Shown: one piece after another, positions 7,323 through 23,771 of the stretch
Position numbering within the stretch: position 1 is the stretch's first letter
How the letters are laid out: each line of letters starts with the position of its first letter
Source: an uncultured Spirochaetaceae bacterium
GTDB taxonomy: Bacteria > Spirochaetota > Spirochaetia > DSM-27196 > SLST01
DNA: 64,000 nucleotides
NCBI GenBank assembly: GCA_964599075.1
Contig: CAZREG010000008.1
Location: 8,972-72,971 of the forward strand
Direction of reading: 5' to 3'
The notes under the pieces: generated by a model
Database searches by the model: none
Told to the model about the DNA's origin: nothing
The model's input: the letters and a program-made list of their open reading frames with translations, nothing else
Program-made: the position numbers and the translations under genes

Positions 7323-8293
7323 CGAATGAACCGTACCACGAGAGAGACGGTGAGTGAAGCCAGGGCCACCGCAAGAAACAGGCGATATCGCCTGCGCGGA
7401 ACCAGGCGAAATCCTTCGCTTTCCCGTACGGAAGCGAATCGATCCAGGAGAGACACCAGACGATCAGCGGCAGCTACATCCGACAGCGTAATAACTTCAC
7501 CCCCCGTTGCACCGGCAATCTGCACCAGGACCGTCGCATCGGCCCGGGATATAACCGGACGTCCATTCTCATCCAGGAGGGCCGTGCCGTCCGGGGCCGG
7601 CACCACAGCCCCTTCGCGCGTGCCGACGAGCACCGCGAACACGGGAATTCCGAGCGAACGGATCTCTGTGAGCGCCTCGTCAACGCTGCCGGTCAGTGCC
7701 TCACCATCCGTCATGAGAACGATTGCACGATGAGAGAGTGAGGCAGACGGAAACCGCTCGAGTCCCATCTGGAGTCCGGCAGCTATGTTGGTGCCGGGAG
7801 CCGTCACAAGGCCGGGTCCGGCGCCATCGAGCACCGTGTCAATAGCCGCCGTGTCGCCCGTCATGGGGATCAGAACGGTGGCCGCGCCCTTGAACAGCAC
7901 GATCGCCATCCGGGCGAACGGAAGCTCGCGAGAGACCAGTCTGACCGTGTCAACGCTCTGATCAAGGCGGCTTGGCGGGAGATCCTGAGCGAGCATGCTC
8001 CGGGAGACGTCAATGACAACCGCTATATCGAGTCCGCGGCGATCCTCCTCGACCGGTTCCTCCCCCCACGCGAATCCGGCTGAAGCCAGAATCGCGAAGA
8101 TAAGAAAGACATCAAAGCTGAACGCGCTGAGAAACCACTTCACAATAAAAAGAGAGGAGAGGCGCTCAGGACTGAGATGAGATCCAAGGCGCATCAGATC
8201 ACGCCTGCCAAGGAAGAAGCTCCTCAGTTGCAGCGTGACCACCGGAATGAGCACCAGAAGACCGTACAGAAGCTGTGGACTCGTCACACTCAC
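7304..8293 (-). CDS. batB: BatB-like VWA domain protein
   Basis: MIDAS DVSRSM, SRLD, PGTNIA, LMTDGE, flanking TM helices. Confidence 0.85.
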   Translation of the reverse strand: MSVTSPQLLYGLLVLIPVVTLQLRSFFLGRRDLMRLGSHLSPERLSSLFIVKWFLSAFSFDVFLIFAILASAGFAWGEEPVEEDRRGLDIAVVIDVSRSMLAQDLPPSRLDQSVDTVRLVSRELPFARMAIVLFKGAATVLIPMTGDTAAIDTVLDGAGPGLVTAPGTNIAAGLQMGLERFPSASLSHRAIVLMTDGEALTGSVDEALTEIRSLGIPVFAVLVGTREGAVVPAPDGTALLDENGRPVISRADATVLVQIAGATGGEVITLSDVAAADRLVSLLDRFASVRESEGFRLVPRRRYRLFLAVALASLTVSLVVRFIRWRGMF

Positions 8294-9294
8294 GGGAGCA
8301 CCTCCCGGACGAAGAGTCTCCGGATCAGGAAGTCAAGGAGAATCAGGGCAAGCGCGAGCAGAATGGCCTCCCGGAAGTACGGGGTTCGCTCTACGACCAT
8401 CAGAGAGCGCTCCTCAACACGCTCGACGGTGTCGATCGCCTCGAAAACCGATGCGAGCGCCGTCCTTGAACCGGCGAAGAAGTAACGTCCCCGACCCGCC
8501 TCTGTGATTCGCCGAAGCGCCTCCTCTTCAAACCCGTCAACAAGCTCGCCGGACCGAGTAGCCCCGGTCTCCGGATCTGTAACCACCAGGTCTACCGGCT
8601 CACCGCTCCCGATCCCTACCACATAGAGCTCGATTCCCAGCGACTCGGCTGCGGCTGCTGCAGTCTCAGGCTGAATCTCCCCGGCGTTGTTGACGCCATC
8701 AGTGATGAGGATAATTGCGCGGCGGGGCGCGTCAGAGCTCTGCAGATGCAACGCGGCTACCGCTATTCCCATCCCGATTGCAGTGCCGTCTCCGAGCTCG
8801 AACACGACCATCTGCTCGAGCACCGATAGCAGATGCTCGTAGTCGAGTGTCGGGGGAACCCGGAGAGCCGCCTCCTCCCCAAAGCCCACCAGCCCGATTG
8901 GGTCGTTCTCCCGCCGGCTGATAAACTCCCGAACAACCTGACGAGCCGCCTCGAAGCGGTTGTCGGGCTGGAAATCCCGGGCGGCCATGGTAGGACTCTG
9001 ATCAAGCGCAATGATAATGTCTGCCCCGCGAGTGAGGAACGCCCGCTCGCGCTCGGCCAGTTCCGGTCCTGCGGCGGCAACAATGAGAAGAGAAAAGCCG
9101 GTCCAGAATGCTATCGAAGAAAAGACGATCAGCGCCGTGGTGGCAGTCGTAGGTCCACGAAAACCAGCACGTCCCCAGACCCGAAACGGAAAGGCAAGAG
9201 TTCCGCCGCGAGAGGGCCAGAAATGGCGGGCGGCAACGAGGACGGGAACGGTGATCAGGAGCAAGAGCAGCGCAGGACGCTCAAATACGAGCAT
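8290..9294 (-). CDS. batA: BatA-like VWA domain protein
   Basis: GADIIIALDQSPTM, DGTAIGMGI, ILITDG.NNAG, YVVGIG. SD GGAGG before ATG 9294. Confidence 0.85.
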   Translation of the reverse strand: MLVFERPALLLLLITVPVLVAARHFWPSRGGTLAFPFRVWGRAGFRGPTTATTALIVFSSIAFWTGFSLLIVAAAGPELAERERAFLTRGADIIIALDQSPTMAARDFQPDNRFEAARQVVREFISRRENDPIGLVGFGEEAALRVPPTLDYEHLLSVLEQMVVFELGDGTAIGMGIAVAALHLQSSDAPRRAIILITDGVNNAGEIQPETAAAAAESLGIELYVVGIGSGEPVDLVVTDPETGATRSGELVDGFEEEALRRITEAGRGRYFFAGSRTALASVFEAIDTVERVEERSLMVVERTPYFREAILLALALILLDFLIRRLFVREVLP

Positions 9295-12128: not shown

Positions 12129-13412
12129 CTACGTTCTGTAATCTGCGTTCTCATGCACGTACTGATCGGAGAGGTCGCTTCCCCAGACAGTAGCACGACC
12201 GGGACCGTTCCCAAAGGCGAGGCTGATCTCCACCGTTCGCGAATGCTGAGGATAGCCGGTCACGCGGGGATTCAGGGCTGCGGTCTTCAGATAGTCTGCA
12301 AGCCGCATCTCCTTCTCCCGGTCTAGCTCAAAGGCTCCGTTGGCAAAGACCCGTTCGCCACCCAACGTAATCTCTACCTCAGAAGGATCAACAGCAACAC
12401 CAAGATTCCCCAGGAAATCTCCGACTGAGGAGAGCAGTCTACCCACATTCGGGTCGTTGCCGTAGATCGCCGTCTTGACCAGTGGGCTATTGACCACTGC
12501 CTTCGCTGTTCCACGGGCGAGCTCACTGGTTGCGCAGCCGGTTACTGACACCTCCATCACGTGGCCGGTGCCCTCCCCGTTTCGTACCACATCCCGGGCG
12601 AGCAGTCCACAGAGCGTGCCAAGAGCGGTGGTGAAATCGTGTTCACTCACTGCGGGCGCCCGCGCCGAACTCATAAGGACGGCCATGTCGCTTGTGCTCA
12701 TATCGCTGTCGACTGATATGGCGTTGAACGTGTCGGCCACGGCTGCGGTGAGTGCACGCCGGACAATCTCACGCTCCATCGTGACGTCGGTGAGCAGAAA
12801 GACGAGCATGGTGGCCATATTCGGCTCAATCATTCCCGCTCCCTTGGCAATCCCGACGATTGATCCGTCACCAATGGGGATGCGACGGATCTTGGGATAG
12901 CTGTCGGTGGTCATGATCGCCTGCGCCACCTCCAGTGCAGAGCCACCGTGTAGTCCGGCGTGGAGTCCGGGAAGCGCCTCCTCCATCTCAGGGACCGGCA
13001 GAGCCCACCCGATGATACCGGTGGAAACAGTGAGCAGCGCACGCTCGGGGACCGATGCAATCTCCCCGAGAGACCTTGTCAGACGCCGGGCGTCGTCAAG
13101 ACCGGTTTTTGCCCGAACGTTCGCGATCTTGTTGTTTATGAGCAACCCCTGCAGGTGTCCGTCCAATCGCTCGCGCCCAAGCAGGACCGGTGCTCCGGGA
13201 AACGCATTTCGCGTGAAGACAGCTGCGAATCGGTCGGTCGGCTCATCGGCGAGAATGAGACTGAGATTCATTCGGTACGGCTCGAGAGACGGTCGCTCAG
13301 CGGGAGTAAAGGCTATCCTGGCAGTTGATACCTGAAAGCCTTCTGGAAGGGCAGCGTGGGACTCGAGATAGTCGAGGTAACTCTGGCTGTCGCCGAACTC
13401 AGGATGATCCAT
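12129..13412 (-). CDS. argJ: Glutamate N-acetyltransferase / ornithine acetyltransferase
   Basis: STGIIG, IMTTDSYPK, AKGAGMIEPNMATML, SVDSDMSTSD, RNGEG, PLVKTAIYGNDPNVGR, Y..ENADYRT. Confidence 0.93.
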   Translation of the reverse strand: MDHPEFGDSQSYLDYLESHAALPEGFQVSTARIAFTPAERPSLEPYRMNLSLILADEPTDRFAAVFTRNAFPGAPVLLGRERLDGHLQGLLINNKIANVRAKTGLDDARRLTRSLGEIASVPERALLTVSTGIIGWALPVPEMEEALPGLHAGLHGGSALEVAQAIMTTDSYPKIRRIPIGDGSIVGIAKGAGMIEPNMATMLVFLLTDVTMEREIVRRALTAAVADTFNAISVDSDMSTSDMAVLMSSARAPAVSEHDFTTALGTLCGLLARDVVRNGEGTGHVMEVSVTGCATSELARGTAKAVVNSPLVKTAIYGNDPNVGRLLSSVGDFLGNLGVAVDPSEVEITLGGERVFANGAFELDREKEMRLADYLKTAALNPRVTGYPQHSRTVEISLAFGNGPGRATVWGSDLSDQYVHENADYRT

Positions 13413-14169
13413 ACGGCACTATAATACGATTGCCGTGAAGCTTCAGCCCACTTGATGCGGGTAGCGATCGTCGCTGCAGATACGCGTGCACCCGATCCGG
13501 GTACCGAACTGGTAGCTCAATGGCGCTCTCGGTCACCGAGAATCCGATGATCTCCTCCATGGTTCGACGGGCGATCTCGGTAATCCTCCCCCACGCTTGC
13601 TCACGCAGGGCATCCTGCGGCACGATCCAGCTGCCGCCACAGGCAACCACCTGGGGAAGCGAGAGATAGCTGTGAATATTCGCAAGCGAGATGCCACCGG
13701 TGGGCATGAATCGAACGTGCGGATAGGGCCCGCAGAGGGCCTTCAGCATCTTCACGCCGCCGGCCGCCTCGGCAGGGAAGAACTTAACCACTGCCAGGTT
13801 TCGGGCAAGAGCCTGCTCAAGATCGCCGGTGGAACTGATTCCAGGAAAGATCGGTATCCCGTTCGTTATGCAGTAGTCCACAACGGGAGCGTTGAAACCG
13901 GGCGTCACTATGAACGCGGCTCCTGCAGCAACAGCCTCCCCGGCCTGTGCCACGCTGGCCACCGTCCCGGCTCCAACGATCATATTGGGACACTCACGAC
14001 TCATGCGTGAGATGCCCTCAGCGGCTGCAGGCGACCGGAAGGTGATCTCTGCAACCGGAAGACCGCCGGCTGCAAGCGCGTCACCGAGGGGTTTCGCCTG
14101 CCCGGGGCTGTCAAGCACAATCACCGGGACGGCGCCGTACTCAGAGATGGCCTGTGCTACCTGTGTCAT
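13399..14169 (-). CDS. eda: KDPG/KHG aldolase with short C-terminal extension
   Basis: VPVIV, AEITFRS, GAGTV, FIVTPG, VKFFPAE..GG, FMPTGGI, CGGSW. SD AGGAG before ATG 14169. Confidence 0.92.
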   Translation of the reverse strand: MTQVAQAISEYGAVPVIVLDSPGQAKPLGDALAAGGLPVAEITFRSPAAAEGISRMSRECPNMIVGAGTVASVAQAGEAVAAGAAFIVTPGFNAPVVDYCITNGIPIFPGISSTGDLEQALARNLAVVKFFPAEAAGGVKMLKALCGPYPHVRFMPTGGISLANIHSYLSLPQVVACGGSWIVPQDALREQAWGRITEIARRTMEEIIGFSVTESAIELPVRYPDRVHAYLQRRSLPASSGLKLHGNRIIVPYGSS

Positions 14170-14177
14170 TACTGCTC

Positions 14178-15278
14178 CTATCGGGCGACCCTGGCGCTGC
14201 CGCCGGCCACCAGGCGCTCTACCTCTGAGAGCGAGGCCATTGATGTGTCGCCTGGTGTTGTCATGGCAAGGGCGCCGTGGGCGGCACCAAACTCCACACA
14301 CTCTTGCGGCTCCATACCGGAGAGAAACCCGTAGATCAGGCCACTGGCAAAGCTGTCTCCGCCGCCGACCCGATCGAGTATCTCCAGTCCTTCGCGATTC
14401 GTGGCCTGAGAGAACGCTCCGTCATGATAGAGAATGGCGCTCCAGTCATTTACGGTAGCACTCTCTACGTCCCGAAGGGTAGTGGCTACCGCCTGGAAAC
14501 TCGGAAACGTCTCCACCACACGGGCAATCATTCGCTTGAACTTGGACGGATCTAAAGCCGTGATTGAATCGTTGAGACCCTCCACCTCAAAGCCGAGAGA
14601 GGCAGTAAAATCCTCTTCGTTGCCGATCATGACATCCACGTGCCGTGCAATCTCACGATTGATCTCCTGCGCCCGCTTCTGGCCACCGCGGGACTTCCAG
14701 AGTGAGCTGCGGTAATTGAGGTCGTAGCTAACTACAGTACCGTAGCGATGAGCCGTCTCCATAGCCTCAATCACCACCTCAGGCGACGTCTCACTGAGTG
14801 CCGCGTAGATGCCGCCGCAGTGAAACCAGCGAGCGCCCTCGGTGTGAAAGATGGTCTCCCAGTCCACGTCGCCCGGTTTAAGACCACCGGCAGCGGAATG
14901 GGCGCGATCGGAGACCCCGAGTGCTCCGCGCACGCCAAACCCGCGCTCGGTGAAGTTGAGTGCCACCCTGTTCTCCGTCCCGATTCCGTCGTAATCGGTC
15001 CAGCGGACGTGGCGCAGGTCCACCCCACCCTGAAGCATCAGATCCTCAAGCAGCAGTCCCAGGTCCGTCCTTGGAATCGCGGTGACGACCGCGGTCCGCA
15101 AGCCAAAACAGCGGCGCAATCCGCGCGCAACGTTGTACTCACCGCCGCCCTCCGAGACCCGAAAGCTCCGGGCGCTTCGCACTCGCCCCTCGCCCGGATC
15201 GAACCGCAGCATCACTTCGCCCAGGCTTACCTGATCCCAGAGACAGTCAGCGGCGTCACGAAGTCTGATTGAATGCAT
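14178..15278 (-). CDS. kdgK: 2-keto-3-deoxygluconate kinase (PfkB family)
   Basis: LGEVMLRFDP, GGGEYNVARGL, SYDLNYRSSLW, DRVGGGDSFASGLIYG. Adjacent to eda. Confidence 0.9.
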   Translation of the reverse strand: MHSIRLRDAADCLWDQVSLGEVMLRFDPGEGRVRSARSFRVSEGGGEYNVARGLRRCFGLRTAVVTAIPRTDLGLLLEDLMLQGGVDLRHVRWTDYDGIGTENRVALNFTERGFGVRGALGVSDRAHSAAGGLKPGDVDWETIFHTEGARWFHCGGIYAALSETSPEVVIEAMETAHRYGTVVSYDLNYRSSLWKSRGGQKRAQEINREIARHVDVMIGNEEDFTASLGFEVEGLNDSITALDPSKFKRMIARVVETFPSFQAVATTLRDVESATVNDWSAILYHDGAFSQATNREGLEILDRVGGGDSFASGLIYGFLSGMEPQECVEFGAAHGALAMTTPGDTSMASLSEVERLVAGGSARVAR

Positions 15279-15300
15279 TCCGGCTTCCTCTGTTTTAGCG

Positions 15301-16446
15301 TTACTCAAGTGCAGAGACATCAACCCACGAGCGGGTCTTCCAGCTCTTCATGCCCAGTTCGGCGAGTTGGACACCCTTTGCTCCTTCAAGCAGGTTCCAG
15401 GGGAACTCGATCTCATCGGCGAGGTGCCGGAGAAAGAGCTCCCACTGCAACTTGAACGCATTCTCCATTGGGTCACGGGTCGGCATGGTCATCCAGTTCT
15501 CATAGTAGTCGATCGGACTGGGTATGTCAGGATTCCAGACCGGCTTCGGTGTCTCGGCATCGCTCTGGATGACGCAGTCACGAAGACCCGCCACCGCCGT
15601 ACCCCGCGTGCCATCCACCTGAAGGGTGAGAAGGTCGTCGCGACGGACCCGTACCGCCCAGCTGGAGTTAAACTGACAGATAATCCCATTCGCAAGCTCG
15701 AAGGTCCCGTACGCGGCATCGTCGGCGGTACACGGGTAGGGCTCTCCCTGCTCGTCTCGACGCTTGGGAATGTGAGTAGCGCCAATAGCGACCAGACGGG
15801 AGATCTCGCCGAACAGATTGTCGATCACGTAGCGCCAGTGACAGAACATGTCTATCATGATGCCGCCACCGTCCTCACTCCGGTAGTTCCAGCTCGGTCG
15901 CTGCGTCGGCTGATGCTCTCCGTCAAACACCCAGTAGCCGAACTCTCCCCTGACACTGAGGATCTCACCAAAGAAACCGGTGTCAATGAGATAACGCAGC
16001 TTGCGCAGACCCGGCAGCCAGAGCTTGTCCTGCACCACACCGTTCTTGACACCGGCGGCCTTGGCCTTCGTCCACAGGCCGTACGCGTCCTCGAGCGTAG
16101 TGGCCGTAGGCTTCTCGCAGTAGATTGACTTCCCCGCGTCAATCGCCTTGCTGACCCCAACCGTTCGAAGCTCAGTGCGCGCGGAGTCGAAGTAGACCTC
16201 TACCTTCGGGTCCGAAAGCACCGCGTCAAGATCCGTGGAGTACGCCTTCACCCCGTGCTCTGCTGCAAGCCGGGCAAGTTTCTTCTCATTCCTTCCGATC
16301 AGCACCGGCTCAGGCACAAGGCGGTCATCGTTTGCCAGCGGCACACCGCCCTGATCACGAATGGCAAGAAGGCTCCTGATCAAATGCTGATTGGTGCCCA
16401 TCCTGCCGGTGACACCGTTCATCCCAATCCTGATTATGCGTTCCAT
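15301..16446 (-). CDS. Gfo/Idh/MocA family oxidoreductase
   Basis: [38 protein letters not shown]. Confidence 0.88.
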
Positions 16447-16454
16447 AGCTGCTC

Positions 16455-17273
16455 CTAAACGTGGTTTTCAAACGCGCTGACAATGCGCGCGAGATAGTTT
16501 CGTTGATCCATTGCCCAGTACTCCTGTGAGAAGATCTCTACCTCACAGAAGCCTGAGAACCCGGCCTGTTCAACCCATTCGCGTATTCCCCGGATATCAA
16601 TGCAGCCCTCCCCCATGAGTCCTCTGTCGGTGAGTATGTCACGGGTCGGGGTGCGCCAGTCACAGACGTGAAACGCAAGAATCCGGCTTCCGGCCCGACG
16701 AATCTCACTTTTCAGTCTGGGATCAAACCAGAGATGGTAGACATCCACTGCAATCCCTAAAAAGTCTGATGGGACCTCATCACAGAGATTGTTCGCCTGC
16801 GTCAGAGAGGTGATAGCACTGCGGCTGTCGGCGTACATAGGATGCAGCGGCTCAACTGCCAGCTTCACACCCAGACGCTCGCAGTCAGGAAGCAGGGTCT
16901 CAACCCCACGGCGTATCTGGCCCCTTGCCTGATCAAGTGCAACCGTCGGGTCCGCACCGCAGACGAGAACCACCATGGGGGCACCAAGCTCGGCCGCTTC
17001 CCGAATGACCGCGCGATTCTCTTCAACGGCTGCCGCGCGCAGATGCTCCTGCCCCGAGACAAAAAAGCCACCGCGACACAGTGACACCGTCTCAAGGCCC
17101 GCGGTGCGGATGAGCCGTGCAGCCTCTGTGACCCCGGTCTGTTCATAGGCATCACGCCAGACGGTAATCCCGCTGACGCCTGCGCGCGCATACTCCTGCA
17201 CGGCACGTTCAAGCGGGAGCGGTCGGGTGGTAGCGGTATGGATGCAAAGGCGCTCCAGTCCTGGCCCGCTCAT
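16455..17273 (-). CDS. Sugar-phosphate isomerase/epimerase (xylose-isomerase-like TIM barrel)
   Basis: [36 protein letters not shown] metal-ligand pattern. Confidence 0.87.
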
Positions 17274-18688
17274 TCCGTTGCTCCGGAACCCACGCCGATG
17301 TCAAAGAAACGCTGTGGTTCCTTGCCCTCGCCAAGTCGTCTGATCGCTACACCAAGCTCAAGCGCGTGGTAGTCTCCCCACATGCTCGACTCACCGCTCG
17401 GCACCTTCTCACCCGCGGCGACATGGTCCCAGCCGTTTGGCCGGTGGTAGACCGAGTGCAACAGGATCCCCTGATGCCCAGCATCCTGAGCAAGATAGGT
17501 GTGTGAGAAGAGCGTCCGGGCAACGGTAAAGGCGGCGGCCTGATAGCGAGCCCCGGTTTCCTGCTCGCCGTGTCTCATCAGATACCGTCCGAGCCGCAGC
17601 AGTCCCTGCGCAGAGATTGCCGCCGCGGAGCTGTCGACCGGCTCATAGGCGTTAAACGGCTCACTCGGACGGTCACGGTAATCGCCCATGTGTACCAGTC
17701 CCGGCGCCCCGGTGTCCCAGTATGGAACCCCGTCGGTGGGCGTCTGTTCCAGATAGAAATCCGCCACCGCGCGGGAGACCTCCAGAAAGCGCTCACGGGC
17801 GTCTGCAAGCGAGGAATAGACCGATGAACCGCTCGCCTGGAACTCCTGTTCACTCATTCCCTCCAGCCACTCAAGCTGCTCGGGATAGCCGGCGAGAATC
17901 CAGCTCAGACCCCGGGTCCAGGTGGTGAACGGTGAGTACCCCTGCTGGGTGGAGGGACACCGGTAGGCGCCGGATTCAACGTTGAAAATGCTCTCATGCA
18001 CAACACGGCCGCGAATATCATAGCTGTCTCGCCCGGTTCCGTAGTAGACGTTGTACCGTGCCGTCGCCTCAGCGTGGGCGAGCAGTCGCGCCAAAAGCGA
18101 GATACGCTCGTCCTGCTCACCCATAAGCACGTGCCCAAGCTGGTGAGAAACGGCGAGCGAGCGCATGCTTCGGATGGTGTCCGAGAAAAGGCTGTGCGCG
18201 CCGTTGAAACTGGGCACGTAGCCCAACCCGTCGGGCAGCCTTGTCCAGCGTGCCGCCTGCACCGCACCGGAGACCGCAAGCGCAAGACGGTACACTTCGG
18301 CCTCGTGAGAGTTGTTCTCCGTTAGCCCCTCCGCCATGAACCGCAACAGGTTGCCGTAGGTGCTCACGTTGTTGAACCCGTGATCGTGCACCCCGGTGTG
18401 TGTGAGGTGAGGCGCCATACGCGACATGGTCTCGGTCCGGCCGTAATCAAGAAACTCCCGGTTTCCGGTAGCCTCAAAGAGCAGCAGCGGGCAGCCGTAC
18501 TGGAAGCCCTGGGTCCACTCGGTCCAGCCCCGTGTGGTGTAGGAGCCGGCCACCGTGAACACCGGCGTTCCGTTCTCAGGTTTCCAGTGTGTACGCAGCA
18601 GTGAAACACTCTTCGCGCCGACTCGGAAGAGCTCTTCCAGCCCGCCGGCAAGGTCGCCTGGCGTAAGTGAAGTATCGATACTGATCAT
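17270..18688 (-). CDS. GH88-like unsaturated glucuronyl hydrolase
   Basis: WTEWTQGF, HDHGF, WTRGLSW, VPYWD, DSSAAAI, WGDYH (alpha/alpha)6-barrel motifs. Confidence 0.82.
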   Translation of the reverse strand: MISIDTSLTPGDLAGGLEELFRVGAKSVSLLRTHWKPENGTPVFTVAGSYTTRGWTEWTQGFQYGCPLLLFEATGNREFLDYGRTETMSRMAPHLTHTGVHDHGFNNVSTYGNLLRFMAEGLTENNSHEAEVYRLALAVSGAVQAARWTRLPDGLGYVPSFNGAHSLFSDTIRSMRSLAVSHQLGHVLMGEQDERISLLARLLAHAEATARYNVYYGTGRDSYDIRGRVVHESIFNVESGAYRCPSTQQGYSPFTTWTRGLSWILAGYPEQLEWLEGMSEQEFQASGSSVYSSLADARERFLEVSRAVADFYLEQTPTDGVPYWDTGAPGLVHMGDYRDRPSEPFNAYEPVDSSAAAISAQGLLRLGRYLMRHGEQETGARYQAAAFTVARTLFSHTYLAQDAGHQGILLHSVYHRPNGWDHVAAGEKVPSGESSMWGDYHALELGVAIRRLGEGKEPQRFFDIGVGSGATE

Positions 18689-18697
18689 GGAATCTCC

Positions 18698-19465
18698 TCA
18701 CAGTTCCGGTATTGTCAGCCCACCGTCGGTGTTGATAACCGTCCCGGTGGAGAAATCAAGATGCCCGTCCATAAACGAACAGATCACCTTTCCCGTGTCC
18801 TCCGGCATGCCCCAGCGACGCTGTGGAACCAGGCCATCGGCAATAAGACGGTCATACTTCTCGCTAACTCCGGCGGTCATATCGGTCTTGGTTATTCCCG
18901 GCCGTACCTCAATCACGGGAATACCGATTTCTGCTAGTCGCACCGCAAACAGCTGTACCGCCATTGAAAGGCCGGCCTTGCTGACGCAATACTCACCGCG
19001 ATTCACCGAGGGCATCTCAGCACTCACCGAGGTCACGAATGCGATCCGTCGGTCACCCTTTCCGGGATTGGAGGCCCAATGCCGGGCCACGAGCTGAGTG
19101 AGAAAGTAGGGCCCGGTGAGGTTGACCGCCATAACTTCCTGATAGACTTCCTCGCTCGCCTCAAGAACGTCATCCCGACGGCGAGGGGCGATCCCGGCGT
19201 TATTGACCAGGCCGTGGATCTCGCCGTAGTGGGTGAGAACCTGCTCGACCAGTCTGCTTCGCTGCGTAGCCTCCGCGATGTTCGCCTGAAACGCGTGATG
19301 ATTCTGCACGGCGGTCGTTGCCTCCGAGCACGCTTTCACGCAGGACTCAGCAGCCTCCCGGTTTCCGTTATAGTGAACCGCAACAGTGTGCCCGGCGCCG
19401 GCGAGTGAGATTGCGATACCACGGCCAATCCCTCGGCTCGCTCCAGTGACCAGAATAACGCCCAT
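18698..19465 (-). CDS. SDR family oxidoreductase (FabG-like annotation class)
   Basis: TGASRGIG, LVNNAG, VTSVS, catalytic YCVSK, RPGITKTDMT. Confidence 0.9.
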   Translation of the reverse strand: MGVILVTGASRGIGRGIAISLAGAGHTVAVHYNGNREAAESCVKACSEATTAVQNHHAFQANIAEATQRSRLVEQVLTHYGEIHGLVNNAGIAPRRRDDVLEASEEVYQEVMAVNLTGPYFLTQLVARHWASNPGKGDRRIAFVTSVSAEMPSVNRGEYCVSKAGLSMAVQLFAVRLAEIGIPVIEVRPGITKTDMTAGVSEKYDRLIADGLVPQRRWGMPEDTGKVICSFMDGHLDFSTGTVINTDGGLTIPEL

Positions 19466-19473
19466 AGAACCTC

Positions 19474-20457
19474 CTACACGCTCTGTTCCGGCACTAAAGA
19501 GCCGGCCAGTGACTCGATCCCGTTCAGAGCTTCACGGGAGAGGATTGCTTCAACGAGTCGCTCTGCCGCCCGGCAGGCAAGCCGTGAAACGGCGAGATCA
19601 ACGGTAGCAATTGGTGTTTCAAGCAGTGAGCGAACCGGCGCGTTGTCGTAACCGGTGACGCCCGCCGTTTCCGGAATGCGCCTCCCGAGACGCAACAGCC
19701 GTTCGGTGACCGCCACTGCAACAAGATCGTTGACGCAGACAAAGAGATCGAATCCCTCGCGAAGCGATTCTTGCATCCGATCGGTACACAGGGCGGCGAT
19801 GGTCGGGAGATGCAGCGACGGAGCGTGTTCAAGAAGTGCCACGCCGGATGAGCGAAGGGCGCTCAGCCGATAGCCTGCAACCGGTTGCTGCTCGTCGGTC
19901 GCAACGAAGAGGGCACGGGCGGACGGGCGTTTCTGTGCAATCCAGTTCCCCAGCTCGCGGAACCCTGACTGCGCATCATTTATCACCCCTGCACCGTAGT
20001 CGCTTCGTCGATTGATCAGAATAAACGGTATGTCGCGACTGGAGAGCGCCTGCATGGTCTTCTCATCCGGCTCACAGAAAGCGAAAATGCAGCCGTCAAT
20101 GTCTCCGAGCTTCTTCCCGGCAAACGGGGAGAGCGAATGATTGAGTGCCGCGATGGTGTGCGCCCGTCGGTCACCGAGCCCCTCATAGACACCGCCGAGC
20201 AGCTCTGCGGCATCGTAGAACAGGTGATACTCAGGCTGCGCCTTGTTCGGGAGAAAAACCACGACATTGAGAATGGAGCGTCCGCCGGGACGCCTGATCT
20301 GACGCTGCGAATAGCCAAGACTTCGCGCGACCGTAAGCACGTGTTCGCGGGTCTGTTCTCCAATGAGGGAGCTCCTGTTGAGTACTCGGGAGACGGTGCT
20401 GACGGATGTTTCAGCCGCCTGCGCTATGTCGTAGACGGTCACGCTCTTTGCTGCCAT
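19474..20457 (-). CDS. LacI family transcriptional regulator, first gene of the uronate operon
   Basis: TVYDIAQAAETSVSTVSRVLN HTH plus periplasmic-binding-type domain (VCVND.VA, VTGYDN). Start at 20457 inferred from the promoter position. Confidence 0.9.
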   Translation of the reverse strand: MAAKSVTVYDIAQAAETSVSTVSRVLNRSSLIGEQTREHVLTVARSLGYSQRQIRRPGGRSILNVVVFLPNKAQPEYHLFYDAAELLGGVYEGLGDRRAHTIAALNHSLSPFAGKKLGDIDGCIFAFCEPDEKTMQALSSRDIPFILINRRSDYGAGVINDAQSGFRELGNWIAQKRPSARALFVATDEQQPVAGYRLSALRSSGVALLEHAPSLHLPTIAALCTDRMQESLREGFDLFVCVNDLVAVAVTERLLRLGRRIPETAGVTGYDNAPVRSLLETPIATVDLAVSRLACRAAERLVEAILSREALNGIESLAGSLVPEQSV

Positions 20458-20498
20458 TTGTTGCATGCAACAATATCATAAAAATGATGGGTCTGCAA
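20458..20498 (-). promoter_or_regulatory. sigma70 promoter overlapped by a 16-bp palindromic operator
   Basis: Minus strand TTGCAG(20498-20493)-N17-TATTGT(20475-20470). Perfect palindrome TTGTTGCATGCAACAA at 20458-20473. Confidence 0.65.
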
Positions 20499-20533: not shown

Positions 20534-22057
20534 TCAGATCCGCCCGTAGAGCTCACTCATCTCAAACAACCGCTCAGCAATCTCATCCGAGAGCTGCTGT
20601 GGGGTGAGTCTGAACTCCCAGTTACCGCCAAGCGTGCCGGGTGTGTTCATTCGAGCAGCGCTGCCAAGCCCCAGCAAGTCCTGAGCAGGCACCACGGCAA
20701 AGTGTGCCGGACTCTCAAGCGCTCCACGGATAAAGTCCCAGTGCGGCTCCTCTCCGGCACGCAGATAGTTGCACGCAAATCGTCGATCTGCCTCGGAAAC
20801 CGCCTCAAGCCACCCGACGATCGTGTCATTGTCGTGGGTTCCCGTGTACACAACCGCGTTTTGCTCGTATCGGTATGGGAGGTAGAGGTTTCGCTCACCG
20901 GCGTTAAACGCGAACTGGAGCACTTTCATACGGGCGAAACCGAAGGTCTCGATCAGCTCTACCACGTCCGGCGTGATGACTCCCAGGTCCTCAGCGATAA
21001 CGGGCAGACGGCCAAGCCGCTCTTCGGCAGCGCGAAACAGATCGTAGCCAGGCGAGGATATCCATTGTCCGTTGAGGGCAGTCTCCTCCCCGGCATCGAC
21101 CGACCAATACGCACTGAATCCGCGAAAGTGATCAATCCGCACATAGTCGTAGAGAGAGAACTTGCTCTCAAAGACCGATATCCACCAACTGAAGCGGTCC
21201 TCCTGGTGGGCGTCCCAGTTGTAGATTGGGTTCCCCCAGAGCTGACCGGTTGCGCTAAAGTAATCTGGAGGGACCCCGGCAACTACGGTGGGATTTCCGG
21301 ACTCATCGAGATAGAAGAGATCCCGATTTGCCCACACGTCTGCACTGTCGTGTGCGACAAAGATGGGTAGATCGCCCATGACTCGAATGCCATGCGCCGC
21401 AGCCACGGCACGGATCTCACTCCACTGGGTATGGAAGACCCACTGCAGAAACTTCACCAGGGAGATGTGGTCGCGATGCTCTGCGGCGAACGTCTGAAGC
21501 GCTTGCGGGTAGCGATCGCGAAGGGGAATCTCCCACTCGGTCCACGGTCTGCCCGCGTGGTACTCCTTTATGGCAACAAAGAGCGCGTAGTCATGGAGCC
21601 AGCCCGCCTGCAGCCGCTCAAAGCGCGCAAGCTTAGCCCGCTGTGCCTGATCGGCTCTCGCGAGAAATCCGCTGTAGCTGATTCGAAGCCGCTCCTGTTT
21701 CCACGGTATAAGCGATCCGTAGTCAACCCGTGATCCGGGTCCCGGGGAATCCTTCAGCTCGGAGGCCTTCAGATAGCCGGCCTCAACCAGCGGCTCCAGT
21801 CCGATCAGCATGGCATTGCCGGCGAGCGCACTGAGGCACTGATAGGGAGAGTCTCCGTAGCCGGTGGGCCCGAGCGGACAGACCTGCCACAGGCGCTGTC
21901 CGGAACGGATAAGAAAATCTATGAATGCGTGAGCCTCCGGTCCGAACGAGCCGATCCCATGTTCACCGGCAAGCGAGCTTGGATGGAGCAACACCCCGGA
22001 GCTGCGGGGGGATGAGAGGATTGAATGATCAATACCATCGGTTCGGCTCATATTCAC
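20534..22057 (-). CDS. malQ: 4-alpha-glucanotransferase (GH77)
   Basis: SGVLLHPSSL, WQVCPLGPTGYGDSPY, GDLPIFVAHDSADVW, RIDHFRGF, IAEDLG, YTGTHDNDT, RMNTPG. Confidence 0.96.
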   Translation of the reverse strand: MNMSRTDGIDHSILSSPRSSGVLLHPSSLAGEHGIGSFGPEAHAFIDFLIRSGQRLWQVCPLGPTGYGDSPYQCLSALAGNAMLIGLEPLVEAGYLKASELKDSPGPGSRVDYGSLIPWKQERLRISYSGFLARADQAQRAKLARFERLQAGWLHDYALFVAIKEYHAGRPWTEWEIPLRDRYPQALQTFAAEHRDHISLVKFLQWVFHTQWSEIRAVAAAHGIRVMGDLPIFVAHDSADVWANRDLFYLDESGNPTVVAGVPPDYFSATGQLWGNPIYNWDAHQEDRFSWWISVFESKFSLYDYVRIDHFRGFSAYWSVDAGEETALNGQWISSPGYDLFRAAEERLGRLPVIAEDLGVITPDVVELIETFGFARMKVLQFAFNAGERNLYLPYRYEQNAVVYTGTHDNDTIVGWLEAVSEADRRFACNYLRAGEEPHWDFIRGALESPAHFAVVPAQDLLGLGSAARMNTPGTLGGNWEFRLTPQQLSDEIAERLFEMSELYGRI

Positions 22058-23139
22058 GAGTGCACGGGCGAGACGGCGATCCGAACGGCATCTCGCTGGG
22101 CGGTCAGGCAGAGCTCGGCTGCCTTGAAGGTGTGCTCCTGCCCCATCGCCAGATCGGTCCCGTCAAGAGAGTCTCTGATAAGCCGCCCGAAGTACGGGAA
22201 GCCGATCTGCCCTCCAACAGAGAAGCGTTTCTCACCCTCATGGTTTGCAAGCAGGACGTGGTCGCCCCGCTTCTCAGTTGCAAGATCGACATACTTGCGA
22301 AGCTCCAGGTAACCGTCGGTCCCCAGGATAAAGGTCCGACCATCGCCCCACGTTGAGAGTCCGTCAGGGGTGAACCAATCGACTCGGAAGTAGTTCGTGG
22401 CGCCGTTGTCCGCCACGAGAGTCGCGTCGCCAAAGTCCTCGAGCTCAGGGTAGCGCGGATGATTGAAGTTGGCCACCTTGCTGTGCAGCACGCGAGCATC
22501 GGTGGCGCCGGAGTAGTAGAGAAACTGTTCAATCTGATGGCTTCCAATGTCAGTAAGAATTCCGCCGTAGCGCTCCTTCTTGAAAAACCAGTCCGGTCGG
22601 CTATCTGCGCCAAGCCGGTGCGGTCCCATGCCTATCACCTGAATCACTGTCCCAATGGCACCCTCTTGAATCAGATCGCCGGCAAAGATCGCTGCCTCGT
22701 TCTGCACGCGCTCGCTGTAACAGACCGCCCAGATGAGCCCGGTCTGTTCAACCTTCGCGCGAGCTGCCGAAAGCTGTTCGAACGTGGTGAACGGCGCTTT
22801 GTCCGAGAGATAGTGCTTTCCGTGGTCCATGACGCGAAGGCCGAGTGGACCTCTGTCTGCCGTCACTGCGGCGGAAGCCACCATACGGATTGACTGATCT
22901 TCGAGGACCTCTTCCTCTGAGCGCGCAGCTCTTGCTCCGGGGAACTCTCCAAGAAACTTCTCAAGCTTGCGAGGATCCGGATCGTAGACCAAAGCCAGGT
23001 CGGCTCCCGCATCCACCAGTCCGTGGGCCATACCGTAGATGTGCCCGTGATCAAGGCCAACTGCCGCGAAAGAGAACTCACCGGGTCCGACGACCGGCTC
23101 GGCTTTGCCGCGCGGAGCGTAATTCATTCCATCTGACAT
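22054..23139 (-). CDS. Gfo/Idh/MocA family oxidoreductase
   Basis: GLDHGHIYGM, LSDKAP, GPHR, YGGILTDIGSHQ, VDWFTPDGL.TWGDGR. Confidence 0.88.
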   Translation of the reverse strand: MSDGMNYAPRGKAEPVVGPGEFSFAAVGLDHGHIYGMAHGLVDAGADLALVYDPDPRKLEKFLGEFPGARAARSEEEVLEDQSIRMVASAAVTADRGPLGLRVMDHGKHYLSDKAPFTTFEQLSAARAKVEQTGLIWAVCYSERVQNEAAIFAGDLIQEGAIGTVIQVIGMGPHRLGADSRPDWFFKKERYGGILTDIGSHQIEQFLYYSGATDARVLHSKVANFNHPRYPELEDFGDATLVADNGATNYFRVDWFTPDGLSTWGDGRTFILGTDGYLELRKYVDLATEKRGDHVLLANHEGEKRFSVGGQIGFPYFGRLIRDSLDGTDLAMGQEHTFKAAELCLTAQRDAVRIAVSPVHS

Positions 23140-23771
23140 TACTTCTTCTTCCTTTTGTTCGGCCGTTTGTGCTTGACTTCAACGGCGCCAAAGATAGCAG
23201 CGCCATCGACGCGGATAACCGGGGCATCCGGAGCATAGGATTCCGATTTTTCGTTCCCCTCGAACGCACCAAAAATTCCGCCTCCGTTCGCCTCAATCCG
23301 GACACCTTCAGGAACCACGATCTCCACCCCGCCGAACATGGCAAACGCAACGATATGCATGCCACCAGGAGGAATCCGCGCATTCGAAAGATCGATGTCG
23401 CTTCCACCAAAAACGGCAATGGTGTGCAGTTTACGCGGCGGGTTCCAGACACCCTTTCGTTCGGTCCCGGAGAAGATCGCCACGAGAGTCCCCGATTCAG
23501 AAACCTGATCGTGGTTGGTCAGGTACCCGTGGCCGCTGTCGGAAGCCTGCGCAGCACGTCCATCCGCTGTAACGGGAGCATTCGGGGATCCGGCTACCGG
23601 CAGATCGATGATAAGAGCGCGTAGATTCGCATGGGTATCCGCGCTTGTCGCACTCTCTATTCGCTGCTCAAACTCGTCCTGACTGAGGTAGTCACGGGAG
23701 TAGCTTGCTGAAAGCTGCTCAATAACTTGCTCACGCAGGCGCTCCAGCGAGTTGTGGGAGGAGTCGCTCAT
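23139..23771 (-). CDS. DUF1707 (SHOCT-like) plus LiaF/DUF2154-like C-terminal domain protein
   Basis: REQVIEQLSASY...LSQDEFEQRIESA...LIIDLP, then AIFSG..RKG.W, AVFGGSDIDL, AMFGGVEIVVPEG. Confidence 0.8.
   Translation of the reverse strand: MSDSSHNSLERLREQVIEQLSASYSRDYLSQDEFEQRIESATSADTHANLRALIIDLPVAGSPNAPVTADGRAAQASDSGHGYLTNHDQVSESGTLVAIFSGTERKGVWNPPRKLHTIAVFGGSDIDLSNARIPPGGMHIVAFAMFGGVEIVVPEGVRIEANGGGIFGAFEGNEKSESYAPDAPVIRVDGAAIFGAVEVKHKRPNKRKKK

Follow-up and report, generated by a model that had tools for sequence, protein, structure and literature searches.

Seven tightly packed open reading frames (ORFs), all on the minus strand, span positions 13399–20466 of a 64-kb stretch of DNA from an uncultured Spirochaetaceae bacterium (contig CAZREG010000008.1 of assembly GCA_964599075.1); this whole stretch is referred to here as the window. 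In the order of transcription, the ORFs encode a LacI-family repressor, a short-chain dehydrogenase/reductase (SDR), a GH88-like protein (GH88L), a xylose-isomerase-like TIM barrel, a Gfo/Idh/MocA oxidoreductase (Gfo), a PfkB kinase, and the aldolase Eda (Table 1). ORF calls placed all seven where a preliminary description of this DNA had reported a same-strand run with small gaps. With orthologue-supported starts, the junctions from LacI to Eda are 8, 9, −4, 8, 22, and 8 nt long, the negative value representing an ATGA overlap in which the TIM barrel gene overlaps the GH88L stop by 4 nt; the start of the kinase gene was set at MHSIRL, following a 366-residue orthologue in locus L001. The LacI gene, 8 nt upstream of the SDR gene, presents the same position in three other spirochaetes (L001, L005, and L007), and an AraC-type or XRE-type regulator occupies this position in other phyla. 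Loci related to the window operon are spirochaetal, and the arrangement, which is far from chance, is found again with the same order of genes in Spirochaetota, Verrucomicrobiota, SAR324, and Bacteroidota. The finding probably represents a variant of the known pathway from unsaturated uronates to 2-keto-3-deoxygluconate (KDG), in which a divergent GH88 subfamily is combined with a non-homologous isomerase–reductase pair. The sequencing runs that match the contig are DNA metagenomes of microbial mats and stromatolites only, none of them RNA, and a promoter and terminator scan of the 12–21 kb region gave counts equal to those in shuffled sequences and hence was uninformative.

Table 1. Genes of the minus-strand operon, with positions in the 64-kb window and scores on family models.
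Feature	Position	Strand	Model matches
LacI-family repressor (presumed operon regulator)	19474–20466	−	Pfam LacI helix-turn-helix, 45 bits; Peripla_BP_3
SDR	18698–19465	−	NCBIfam PRK12745, 293 bits (cut-off 250)
GH88-like protein (GH88L), 472 residues	17270–18688	−	PF07470, 20.3 bits (gathering score 26.6; sub-threshold)
Xylose-isomerase-like TIM barrel	16455–17273	−	PF01261, 130.5 bits (cut-off 31.1)
Gfo/Idh/MocA oxidoreductase (Gfo)	15301–16446	−	PF01408, PF02894, PF22725 (all pass)
PfkB kinase	14178–15278	−	PF00294, 85.7 bits
Eda	13399–14169	−	PF01081, 214 bits; TIGR01182, 240.9 bits (cut-off 156.05); PRK05718, 254.7 bits (cut-off 241)

GH88L is a divergent GH88 subfamily. No NCBIfam model matched it; its family profile retrieved only unsaturated glucuronyl hydrolase (UGL) structures from the PDB (E 1.9e-13), and hhalign against alignments of canonical GH88 proteins gave a probability of 99.7% (E ~1e-25). 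A Foldseek search with the AlphaFold2 (AF2) model of GH88L (predicted local distance difference test score, 90.2) returned UGLs as all of its twelve best PDB hits (E 3.5e-15), the best match being 1vd5 (template modelling score 0.82 on the target, ~21% identity). The model presents the (alpha/alpha)6-barrel fold of UGL, with the twelve helices in the same order as in an AF2-predicted canonical GH88 from Paenibacillus, which served as the comparison model; about 90 extra residues are located in the loops between helices 6–7, 7–8, 8–9, 9–10, and 11–12. The GH88 call made in the preliminary description therefore holds for the fold and the apparent catalytic residues, but GH88L is a divergent, sub-threshold relative of the canonical enzymes, which have ~380 residues. 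UGL blocks that are invariant in 35 GH88L homologues include TEWTQGF (W58), HD102HGF, HES (H231), TQQG (Q249), TWTRG (W257, R259), W263, YWD, DSS, and WGDYH; HMMER alignments to 2ahf/1vd5 pair TDWTDGF, HTF, THQG, and TWTRGQAW of UGL with TEWTQGF, HES, TQQG, and TWTRGLSW of GH88L. We take W42, H193, Q211, W219, R221, and W225 to be the residues that bind substrate at subsite −1 of the Bacillus UGL, and Q249 and R259 of GH88L presumably correspond to the UGL residues that bind the carboxylate beside the double bond. No signal peptide was found in GH88L, which we read as cytoplasmic, and we propose from homology that it is a putative unsaturated uronyl hydrolase (i.e., a vinyl-ether hydratase).

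Two aspartates are catalytic in UGLs. The first (D88 in the Bacillus UGL and D115 in the Streptococcus agalactiae UGL) lies in the HHDxGF motif, where HD102HGF of GH88L was paired with HDLGF in every alignment. The second, the general acid of the IIDC motif (D149 and D175 in UGLs), probably has its equivalent in D170 of GH88L, as far as the predicted structures can be trusted. In the canonical GH88 model, the catalytic D173 stands where helix 6 starts and comes after a strand (residues 169–171); in the GH88L model, a strand (166–168) is followed by D170 just before helix 6 (171–183), and the loops preceding this strand contain 18 and 19 residues, respectively. In both models the active-site residues are located at the N-termini of alternate helices, and D170 is invariant among GH88L homologues. 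The assignment is based on the shared helix order, the strand-then-aspartate topology, and the placement of active-site residues at helix N-termini.

GH88L was matched by more than 8000 database clusters and is carried by at least 599 bacterial species-representative genomes from more than ten phyla, with 58–78% identity across Spirochaetota, Verrucomicrobiota, Planctomycetota, Poribacteria, Bacteroidota, Ignavibacteriota, Acidobacteriota, Actinomycetota, Chloroflexota, and others. The database names of 240 GH88L and Gfo homologues are generic labels only. Gene neighbourhoods were scored by tblastn and ORF clustering at 84 loci (80 from species genomes and four others), 55 of which were well flanked (GH88L having 3 kb or more of sequence upstream and 4 kb or more downstream). 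The most common neighbour in these 55 loci was an SDR of the PRK12745 type (38 loci), followed by a Gfo orthologue (24), KDG kinase (KdgK) and/or Eda (11), an old yellow enzyme (OYE)-like flavoprotein (5), and a GhrB-like dehydrogenase (2); 15 loci, mostly from Poribacteria, presented none of these neighbours. Linkage of GH88L to KdgK/Eda recurs in at least six phyla, and the cluster represents a conserved module of the uronate type with KdgK/Eda at its end. Gfo never occurred alone and never with both of its partners; it was accompanied by the TIM barrel in 14 loci and by a 152-residue cupin, which fills the slot of the TIM barrel between GH88L and Gfo, in the other 10, so that exactly one of the two was present in all 24. 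A cupin is found beside GH88L in many Verrucomicrobiota, and Methylacidiphilaceae possess both the TIM barrel and the cupin version of the module. Minimal SDR-GH88L-Eda-KdgK clusters with no isomerase were identified in Ignavibacteriales and Chitinophagales. On the GH88L tree, partner type tracks clades, with 14 label changes as compared to 31.8 for shuffled labels, suggesting that whole modules are inherited or transferred together. The transporters that flank the module are of two kinds, GPH-like members of the major facilitator superfamily (MFS) and sodium:solute symporters that have a small subunit, and two of the 84 loci have classical hexuronate genes beside the module (uxuA and uxaC in L080; uxaA in L010).

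Other settings of GH88L were observed as well. In Deltaproteobacteria of the Desulfocapsaceae type (L009, L013, and L029), genes for a CoA-transferase and an acyl-CoA dehydrogenase are followed by GH88L and then by a distant Gfo (23–26% identity), and in L013 and L029 the latter is followed by a GhrB-like 2-hydroxyacid dehydrogenase and an MFS transporter. Poribacterial GH88L genes are solitary and follow genes for a cytidylyltransferase-like protein and an EF-Tu-like GTPase (L020, L025, L032, L037, L040, L042, L045, L050, L052, and L058); no SDR, Gfo, TIM barrel, KdgK, or Eda was found within 10 kb of them. A few GH88L loci have a shikimate dehydrogenase or dehydroquinate synthase gene nearby. 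A role of GH88L as an enolpyruvyl-ether hydrolase in the shikimate/chorismate pathway was considered and set aside, since its recurrent partners are KdgK/Eda and hexuronate genes.

The TIM barrel scored only 36.7 bits on the IolO equivalog model (cut-off 300). Its orthologues include three uncharacterised structures, 7vpf, 3qc0, and 3ju2 (SMc04130; E ~1e-68), and its best characterised relative is the inosose isomerase IolI (1i60; E 1.8e-8), a ketol isomerase; three TIM-barrel orthologues that were compared are 45–53% identical. In the cupin taking its place, the metal motif is intact. TIM barrels and cupins are both classic folds of metal-dependent sugar ketol isomerases, and the cupin is the fold class of KduI, itself a bicupin (PF04962). 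Such an exchange of two folds in one slot is what a non-homologous isomerase would be expected to show. Homology of the module cupin to KduI was rejected (hhalign probability 5%), as was its identification as KdgF, with no KdgF-named PDB chain retrieved at E ≤ 0.001. Gfo has an N-terminal Rossmann domain and a C-terminal domain, with an EKP motif at 111 and DMFCH at 199. It passes no functional equivalog model, its top NCBIfam hit being levoglucosan dehydrogenase at 62.8 bits (cut-off 650); the uncharacterised structure 3oqb is an orthologue of it (E 3.5e-152), and among its remoter relatives in the PDB are levoglucosan dehydrogenase (6a3f) and the C-glycoside enzyme DgpA. In the window, as in several phyla, KdgK-Eda comes directly after the Gfo gene, and in Alphaproteobacteria and on plasmid pAO1 the gene directly downstream of it encodes a protein similar to dihydrodipicolinate synthase. 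We propose that the TIM barrel is a putative metal-dependent ketol isomerase of 4-deoxy-5-keto-uronate, with a KduI-like role, and that Gfo is its putative keto-reductase partner, with a KduD-like role yielding KDG. The earlier suggestion that the xylose-isomerase-like protein substitutes for KduI is consistent with the kinship to IolI, with the cupin exchange, and with the lack of KduI at the related loci, but it would hold by analogy of role and not by homology to KduI.

The SDR presents the motifs TGASRGIG, NNAG, and YCVSK. While it passes PRK12745 (Table 1), it scored 119.6 bits on the KduD model TIGR01832 (cut-off 338.85); it shares 31.5% identity with E. coli KduD over 184 residues, and the KduD structure 4z9y ranks only 15th among its PDB hits, level with FabG-type hits. 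The SDR was therefore rejected as an orthologue of KduD/DhuD. Among its listed PDB hits at E ≤ 1e-20, no chain is named as a reductase of DEH (the L-erythro 4-deoxy-5-keto-uronate). The SDR is the partner of GH88L, and Gfo is the obligate partner of the isomerase; this linkage revises the earlier scheme, in which the SDR and/or Gfo replaces KduD, and would tentatively favour Gfo for that role. We propose that the SDR is an NAD(P)H-dependent reductase of the 4-deoxy-5-keto-uronate released by GH88L.

For the aldolase of the terminal steps, the evidence from homology is strong. The top NCBIfam hits of the PfkB kinase represent the kinase part of fusions of 2-keto-4-hydroxyglutarate (KHG)/2-keto-3-deoxy-6-phosphogluconate (KDPG) aldolase with a kinase (287 bits, below the equivalog cut-off); on the models for KDG and 2-keto-3-deoxygalactonate kinases, it scored 141 and 75 bits (cut-offs 440 and 400, respectively). 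The kinase contains a GGGD motif, and because its gene adjoins eda, both here and in other phyla, it is most likely KdgK. Eda passes both of its NCBIfam models (Table 1) and contains the motifs EITFR and VKFFP.

A tblastn search of the window with E. coli KduI, UxaA, UxaC, UxuA, and UxuB returned nothing at E ≤ 0.01, and neither did a search with the module cupin. E. coli RpiB, used as a proxy for DhuI, had no match in the window at the same threshold or in the related loci at E ≤ 1e-5, and E. coli KduD retrieved generic SDRs only (25–32% identity). No dehydratase of the UxuA, UxaA, or enolase type was identified in the window, and KduI was found in none of the 84 related loci by tblastn with the E. 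coli protein. The earlier statement on missing genes is upheld for kduI, for dhuI (with RpiB as its proxy), and for other uronate genes as a statement about the window.

Gfo orthologues with 55–60% identity also occur without GH88L or the SDR, in contexts that are all acid-sugar contexts. On Chimaeribacter plasmids, the order is TetR-Gfo-TIM-MFS, the MFS protein being of the anion:cation-symporter (ACS) type, similar to galactonate and hexuronate transporters. In most of the bacterial contexts, although not on the Chimaeribacter plasmids, the neighbours include a protein of a class that consumes 2-keto-3-deoxy acids, i.e., KdgK/Eda or an aldolase/dehydratase of the dihydrodipicolinate synthase (DHDPS) type. 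In Alphaproteobacteria (Sinorhizobium, Nitratireductor, and Paroceanicella), clusters of five to six genes (L089 8185–14916, which corresponds to S. meliloti SMc04129-33, L091, and L099) comprise TetR, a TIM barrel, an atypical enolase-like protein of 471 residues, Gfo, an atypical DHDPS-like protein of 387 residues, and a second TIM barrel or Gfo, and they lie beside Tct or ABC transporters. Structures have been deposited for members of this cluster (3qc0, 3ju2, 4dnh, and a relative of 3oqb), for which we found no assigned function or paper. The only match to the S. meliloti DHDPS-like protein is the uncharacterised 4dnh, which is nearly identical (E 4e-258) and probably represents this same protein; no PDB relative of the S. 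meliloti enolase-like protein was found. A cluster on plasmid pAO1 (L097 65747–70743) encodes a GMC oxidoreductase, an aldehyde dehydrogenase, Gfo (55% identical), a DHDPS-like protein, and a glycerate kinase. Judging from the aldehyde dehydrogenase annotation, this is probably the oxidative xylose cluster of pAO1, and its substrate may deserve a second look. A passage in PMC8190789, citing Mihasan et al. 2013, assigns the non-nicotine genes of pAO1 to an oxidative xylose pathway. The haloarchaeal Gfo orthologue (58% identity) has a DUF362 protein as its partner in place of the TIM barrel or cupin; it is located beside a GH28 gene and an alpha/beta hydrolase gene on Haloferax volcanii pHV3 (L096 373220–375769), and in Halosolutus (L098) its neighbours are a DUF4147 glycerate-kinase-like protein and one of the FAH family.

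When lyases degrade pectin, alginate, ulvan, glycosaminoglycans, or the exopolymers of microbes, unsaturated uronates are the common products. GH88 enzymes hydrate the C4=C5 vinyl ether and thereby yield the aglycone and a 4-deoxy-5-keto-uronate. Conversion of the L-threo form of this product (DKI/DHU) to KDG requires a ketol isomerase and a keto-reductase, while the L-erythro form (DEH, from alginate) requires one aldehyde reductase. DKI and DEH differ at C2 alone, and since C2 becomes a carbonyl in 2,5-diketo-3-deoxygluconate, one ketol isomerase could funnel both. In the scheme that we propose, GH88L would hydrate a non-reducing unsaturated uronate and free the aglycone together with DKI/DHU (from glucuronate, galacturonate, or iduronate) or DEH (from mannuronate or guluronate). 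The TIM barrel, or the cupin in other lineages, would isomerise the aldose form of either C2 epimer to 2,5-diketo-3-deoxygluconate, which Gfo would reduce to KDG; for these two steps, the scheme draws on gene linkage and fold class. The SDR, as the tightest partner of GH88L, may be a second reductase, which most simply would convert the aldehyde of DEH directly to KDG, and direct reduction of DEH would make the minimal SDR-GH88L-KdgK-Eda clusters self-sufficient. KdgK would then phosphorylate KDG, Eda would split KDPG into pyruvate and glyceraldehyde-3-phosphate, and LacI would repress the operon. The data fit best with two functional units, i.e., a core of GH88L and SDR that would suffice for DEH-type substrates and an isomerase–reductase unit of TIM barrel or cupin with Gfo.

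That the TIM barrel or cupin together with Gfo is the non-homologous counterpart of KduI/KduD, with the SDR as a direct reductase, is a reading that we hold tentatively and at somewhat less than even chances. It is based on the coupling of Gfo to an isomerase in all 24 loci, the mutual exclusivity of TIM barrel and cupin, the kinship to IolI, the position of Gfo before KdgK-Eda, and the absence of a dehydratase. The broader claim, that this pair represents a third and fourth non-homologous isomerase–reductase solution for taking DKI/DHU, and possibly DEH, to KDG, coupled to a widespread cytoplasmic GH88 subfamily and a dedicated SDR, is possible but more doubtful. As compared to the preliminary description, the module, the lack of KduI at the window and related loci, and the GH88 fold all stand, while the linkage data revise its scheme in making Gfo, and not the SDR, the partner of the isomerase. 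What is least certain is how the SDR and Gfo divide their roles.

Several observations weigh against this reading. An isomerase route needs one reductase, so that either the SDR or Gfo is left unexplained or redundant. At eight loci, an OYE-like FMN oxidoreductase of ~500 residues replaces the TIM barrel and Gfo beside GH88L (L067, at 7385–8911, L011, L021, L023, L055, L068, L071, and L074, from Verrucomicrobiota, Chloroflexota, Planctomycetota, and Bifidobacteriaceae, sometimes with KdgK/Eda), and at some deltaproteobacterial loci a GhrB-like dehydrogenase does so; neither substitution is predicted by our scheme. GH88L is found among housekeeping genes in Poribacteria and largely also in Actinobacteria, with no sugar-acid partner other than the SDR. 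For the second catalytic aspartate, three modes of hhalign and three modes of MAFFT placed R173 of GH88L opposite the UGL residue, and a richer canonical profile placed a gap there. In the window, no polysaccharide lyase or transporter gene adjoins the operon, and KduI and KduD may be encoded elsewhere in this genome. The PDB search output gave no functional name for 3oqb, 3qc0/3ju2, 7vpf, or 4da9 (a relative of the SDR), our literature search found no functional study of 7VPF, 3OQB, 3QC0, 3JU2, or SMc04129-33, and we found no measured activity in the orthologue groups of GH88L, SDR, TIM barrel, or Gfo. An enolase-superfamily protein can also accompany the Gfo-TIM pair, which would agree at least as well with a route by which a saturated uronate is isomerised, reduced, and dehydrated.

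Some of these observations would be accommodated if the operon were more ordinary than proposed, with KduI/KduD or DhuI/DhuD encoded elsewhere and the SDR, TIM barrel, and Gfo serving an unrelated or accessory sugar-acid step, or if GH88L were no uronide hydrolase at all but acted on some other enol-ether carboxylate or small metabolite. The searches for KduI covered the window and 84 loci; the housekeeping settings, the heterogeneous partner sets, and the arginine that sequence alignments put at the second catalytic position could all be read in this way, and the unusually high identity of GH88L across phyla (58–62%) resembles that of a small-molecule metabolic enzyme. This explanation, which we regard as unlikely, has against it the KdgK/Eda linkage across phyla, the hexuronate genes adjoining the module in L080 and L010, the failure to find KduI at even one of the related loci, the interchange of TIM barrel and cupin beside Gfo, and the invariance of D170 at what the model topology indicates is the position of the UGL catalytic aspartate.

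The main rival explanation, akin to the alternative in the preliminary description that the Gfo and isomerase pair acts on a different uronate, would divide the operon differently: GH88L and the SDR alone would lead to KDG from a DEH-type, alginate-like substrate, and the TIM barrel or cupin with Gfo would be a UxaC/UxuB analogue acting on a saturated uronate, either the aglycone of an unsaturated di-uronide or one imported separately, which would be converted via the keto-uronate to the aldonate for a dehydratase encoded elsewhere. Under this explanation, the minimal clusters and the Gfo-TIM pairs without GH88L or SDR, including those with the ACS-type transporter in Chimaeribacter, would each represent one of the two halves, and the alphaproteobacterial Tct/enolase/DHDPS-like context would present the order isomerase, reductase, dehydratase, aldolase. 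In L080, uxuA and uxaC, but no uxuB, stand beside cupin-Gfo-GH88L-SDR, and GH28, the neighbour of Gfo in Haloferax, releases saturated galacturonate; an alginate-induced, possibly related GH88-cupin operon in Verruconatronum would also be compatible. The alphaproteobacterial and Haloferax contexts are better suited by this explanation than by the KduI/KduD-like role. For the module as such, we consider it improbable, given that the window lacks a dehydratase of any of the three types, that a dehydratase is near the module in only two of the 84 loci, that Gfo is followed directly by KdgK-Eda, as if its product were KDG already, and that the pAO1 cluster combines Gfo with a DHDPS-like protein without any dehydratase.

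An oxidative, non-hydrolytic cascade of glycoside cleavage, of the kind seen for 3-keto-glycosides and levoglucosan, in which Gfo would oxidise a ring hydroxyl, the TIM barrel would eliminate the aglycone, GH88L would hydrate the resulting enol ether, and the SDR would reduce the ketone, would employ all four enzymes in a single linear path, matches steps that Gfo and xylose-isomerase-like TIM barrels perform in known systems as well as the levoglucosan dehydrogenase and DgpA relatives of Gfo, and agrees with GH88 chemistry as a vinyl ether hydration, but it is very improbable, as GH88L-SDR-KdgK/Eda clusters without Gfo and TIM barrel would miss the oxidation and elimination, GH88L keeps the presumed carboxylate-binding residues Q249 and R259, the product would be a normal sugar and not KDG, which leaves the KdgK-Eda linkage unexplained, and a cupin can substitute for the TIM barrel, while we know of no cupin acting as a 3-keto-glycoside lyase.

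The KduI/KduD-like reading places the module closest to the classical route formed by UGL/GH105, KduI/DhuI, KduD/DhuD, KdgK, and KdgA/Eda. Both begin with a protein of the GH88 fold and end with KDG kinase and KDPG aldolase, and both have an isomerase-type protein and NAD(P)-dependent oxidoreductases in between, in one operon with a sugar-type repressor. The module differs in the length, the sub-threshold Pfam score, and the extra loop residues of its GH88-type protein, in having a TIM barrel or monocupin as isomerase candidate instead of the KduI bicupin or RpiB-like DhuI, and in its isomerase-linked reductase, which belongs to the Gfo/Idh/MocA family and not to the SDRs, while its additional SDR is not specifically related to KduD/DhuD. 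In the alginate route (KdgF cupin, the DEH reductase DehR/A1-R/FlRed, KdgK, and Eda), a single NAD(P)H reductase leads to KDG, as the minimal clusters imply, and the cupin beside GH88L in Verrucomicrobiota is a further likeness; in the characterised alginate pathways known to us, the monomer is released by exolytic lyases and not by GH88. The Ashwell pathway (UxaC, UxuB/UxaB, UxuA/UxaA, KdgK, and Eda) has the reaction types proposed for the TIM barrel and Gfo, with aldose–ketose isomerisation of a uronate before a keto reduction, and shares the last two enzymes, and its uxaC and uxuA genes adjoin the module in L080; the window, however, has no homologues of UxaC, UxuA, UxuB, or UxaA, and without a dehydratase the enzymes of the operon could not by themselves bring a saturated uronate to KDG. 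Systems for oxidative glycoside cleavage (LgdA/B for levoglucosan, CarA/BC for C-glycosides, DgpA, and BT2156-2160 of Bacteroides) share Gfo and a TIM barrel of the same Pfam family, but have no GH88-fold protein and no KdgK/Eda end; in the module, in contrast, the TIM barrel may give way to a cupin, and many GH88L loci do without the pair. A pan-genomic survey from December 2025 (Nishimura et al. 2025; PMC12838403) recognised KduI and DhuI as the sole isomerases and KduD/DhuD as the sole reductases for this step. In Verruconatronum alginivorum, a soda-lake verrucomicrobium described in 2026, alginate raises the expression of an operon with a cytoplasmic GH88, a cupin, and a cupin-HTH (helix-turn-helix) regulator (PMC13274419). 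Genes stand there in the order known from the module's cupin variant, and the operon is a candidate member of the family; if it is a member, this would be the first expression evidence for the module and would point to alginate-type substrates.

Metabolic reconstructions that seek KduI/DhuI and KduD/DhuD would rate genomes with this module as incomplete. If the proposed roles are correct, many Verrucomicrobiota, Planctomycetota, Spirochaetota, Poribacteria, and members of other groups that seemingly lack the KduI step would hold a complete pathway, and assigning the module would fill a recurrent gap in carbon-cycling models of mats, soils, sponges, and soda lakes. Such an assignment would also give a function to at least five orphan structures (3oqb, 3qc0/3ju2, and 4da9, and possibly 4dnh from the neighbouring cluster), define a new GH88 subfamily for CAZy-type annotation, and supply a further example of a single metabolic step filled repeatedly by non-homologous enzymes.

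Two further gene arrangements were observed at the borders of the operon. Directly upstream of LacI, a separate operon (20534–23771) encodes a DUF1707/LiaF-like protein, a second Gfo/Idh/MocA protein, and a GH77 4-alpha-glucanotransferase; no functional tie of this operon to the uronate module is evident, and it is kept in related spirochaetes (L001 2875–6143; L006). At the other end, the start of argJ (13412) overlaps the final 14 nt of eda (13399–13412), so that this arginine biosynthesis gene appears to be translationally linked to the sugar-acid operon; the order eda-argJ-moxR is retained in the related spirochaete L001.

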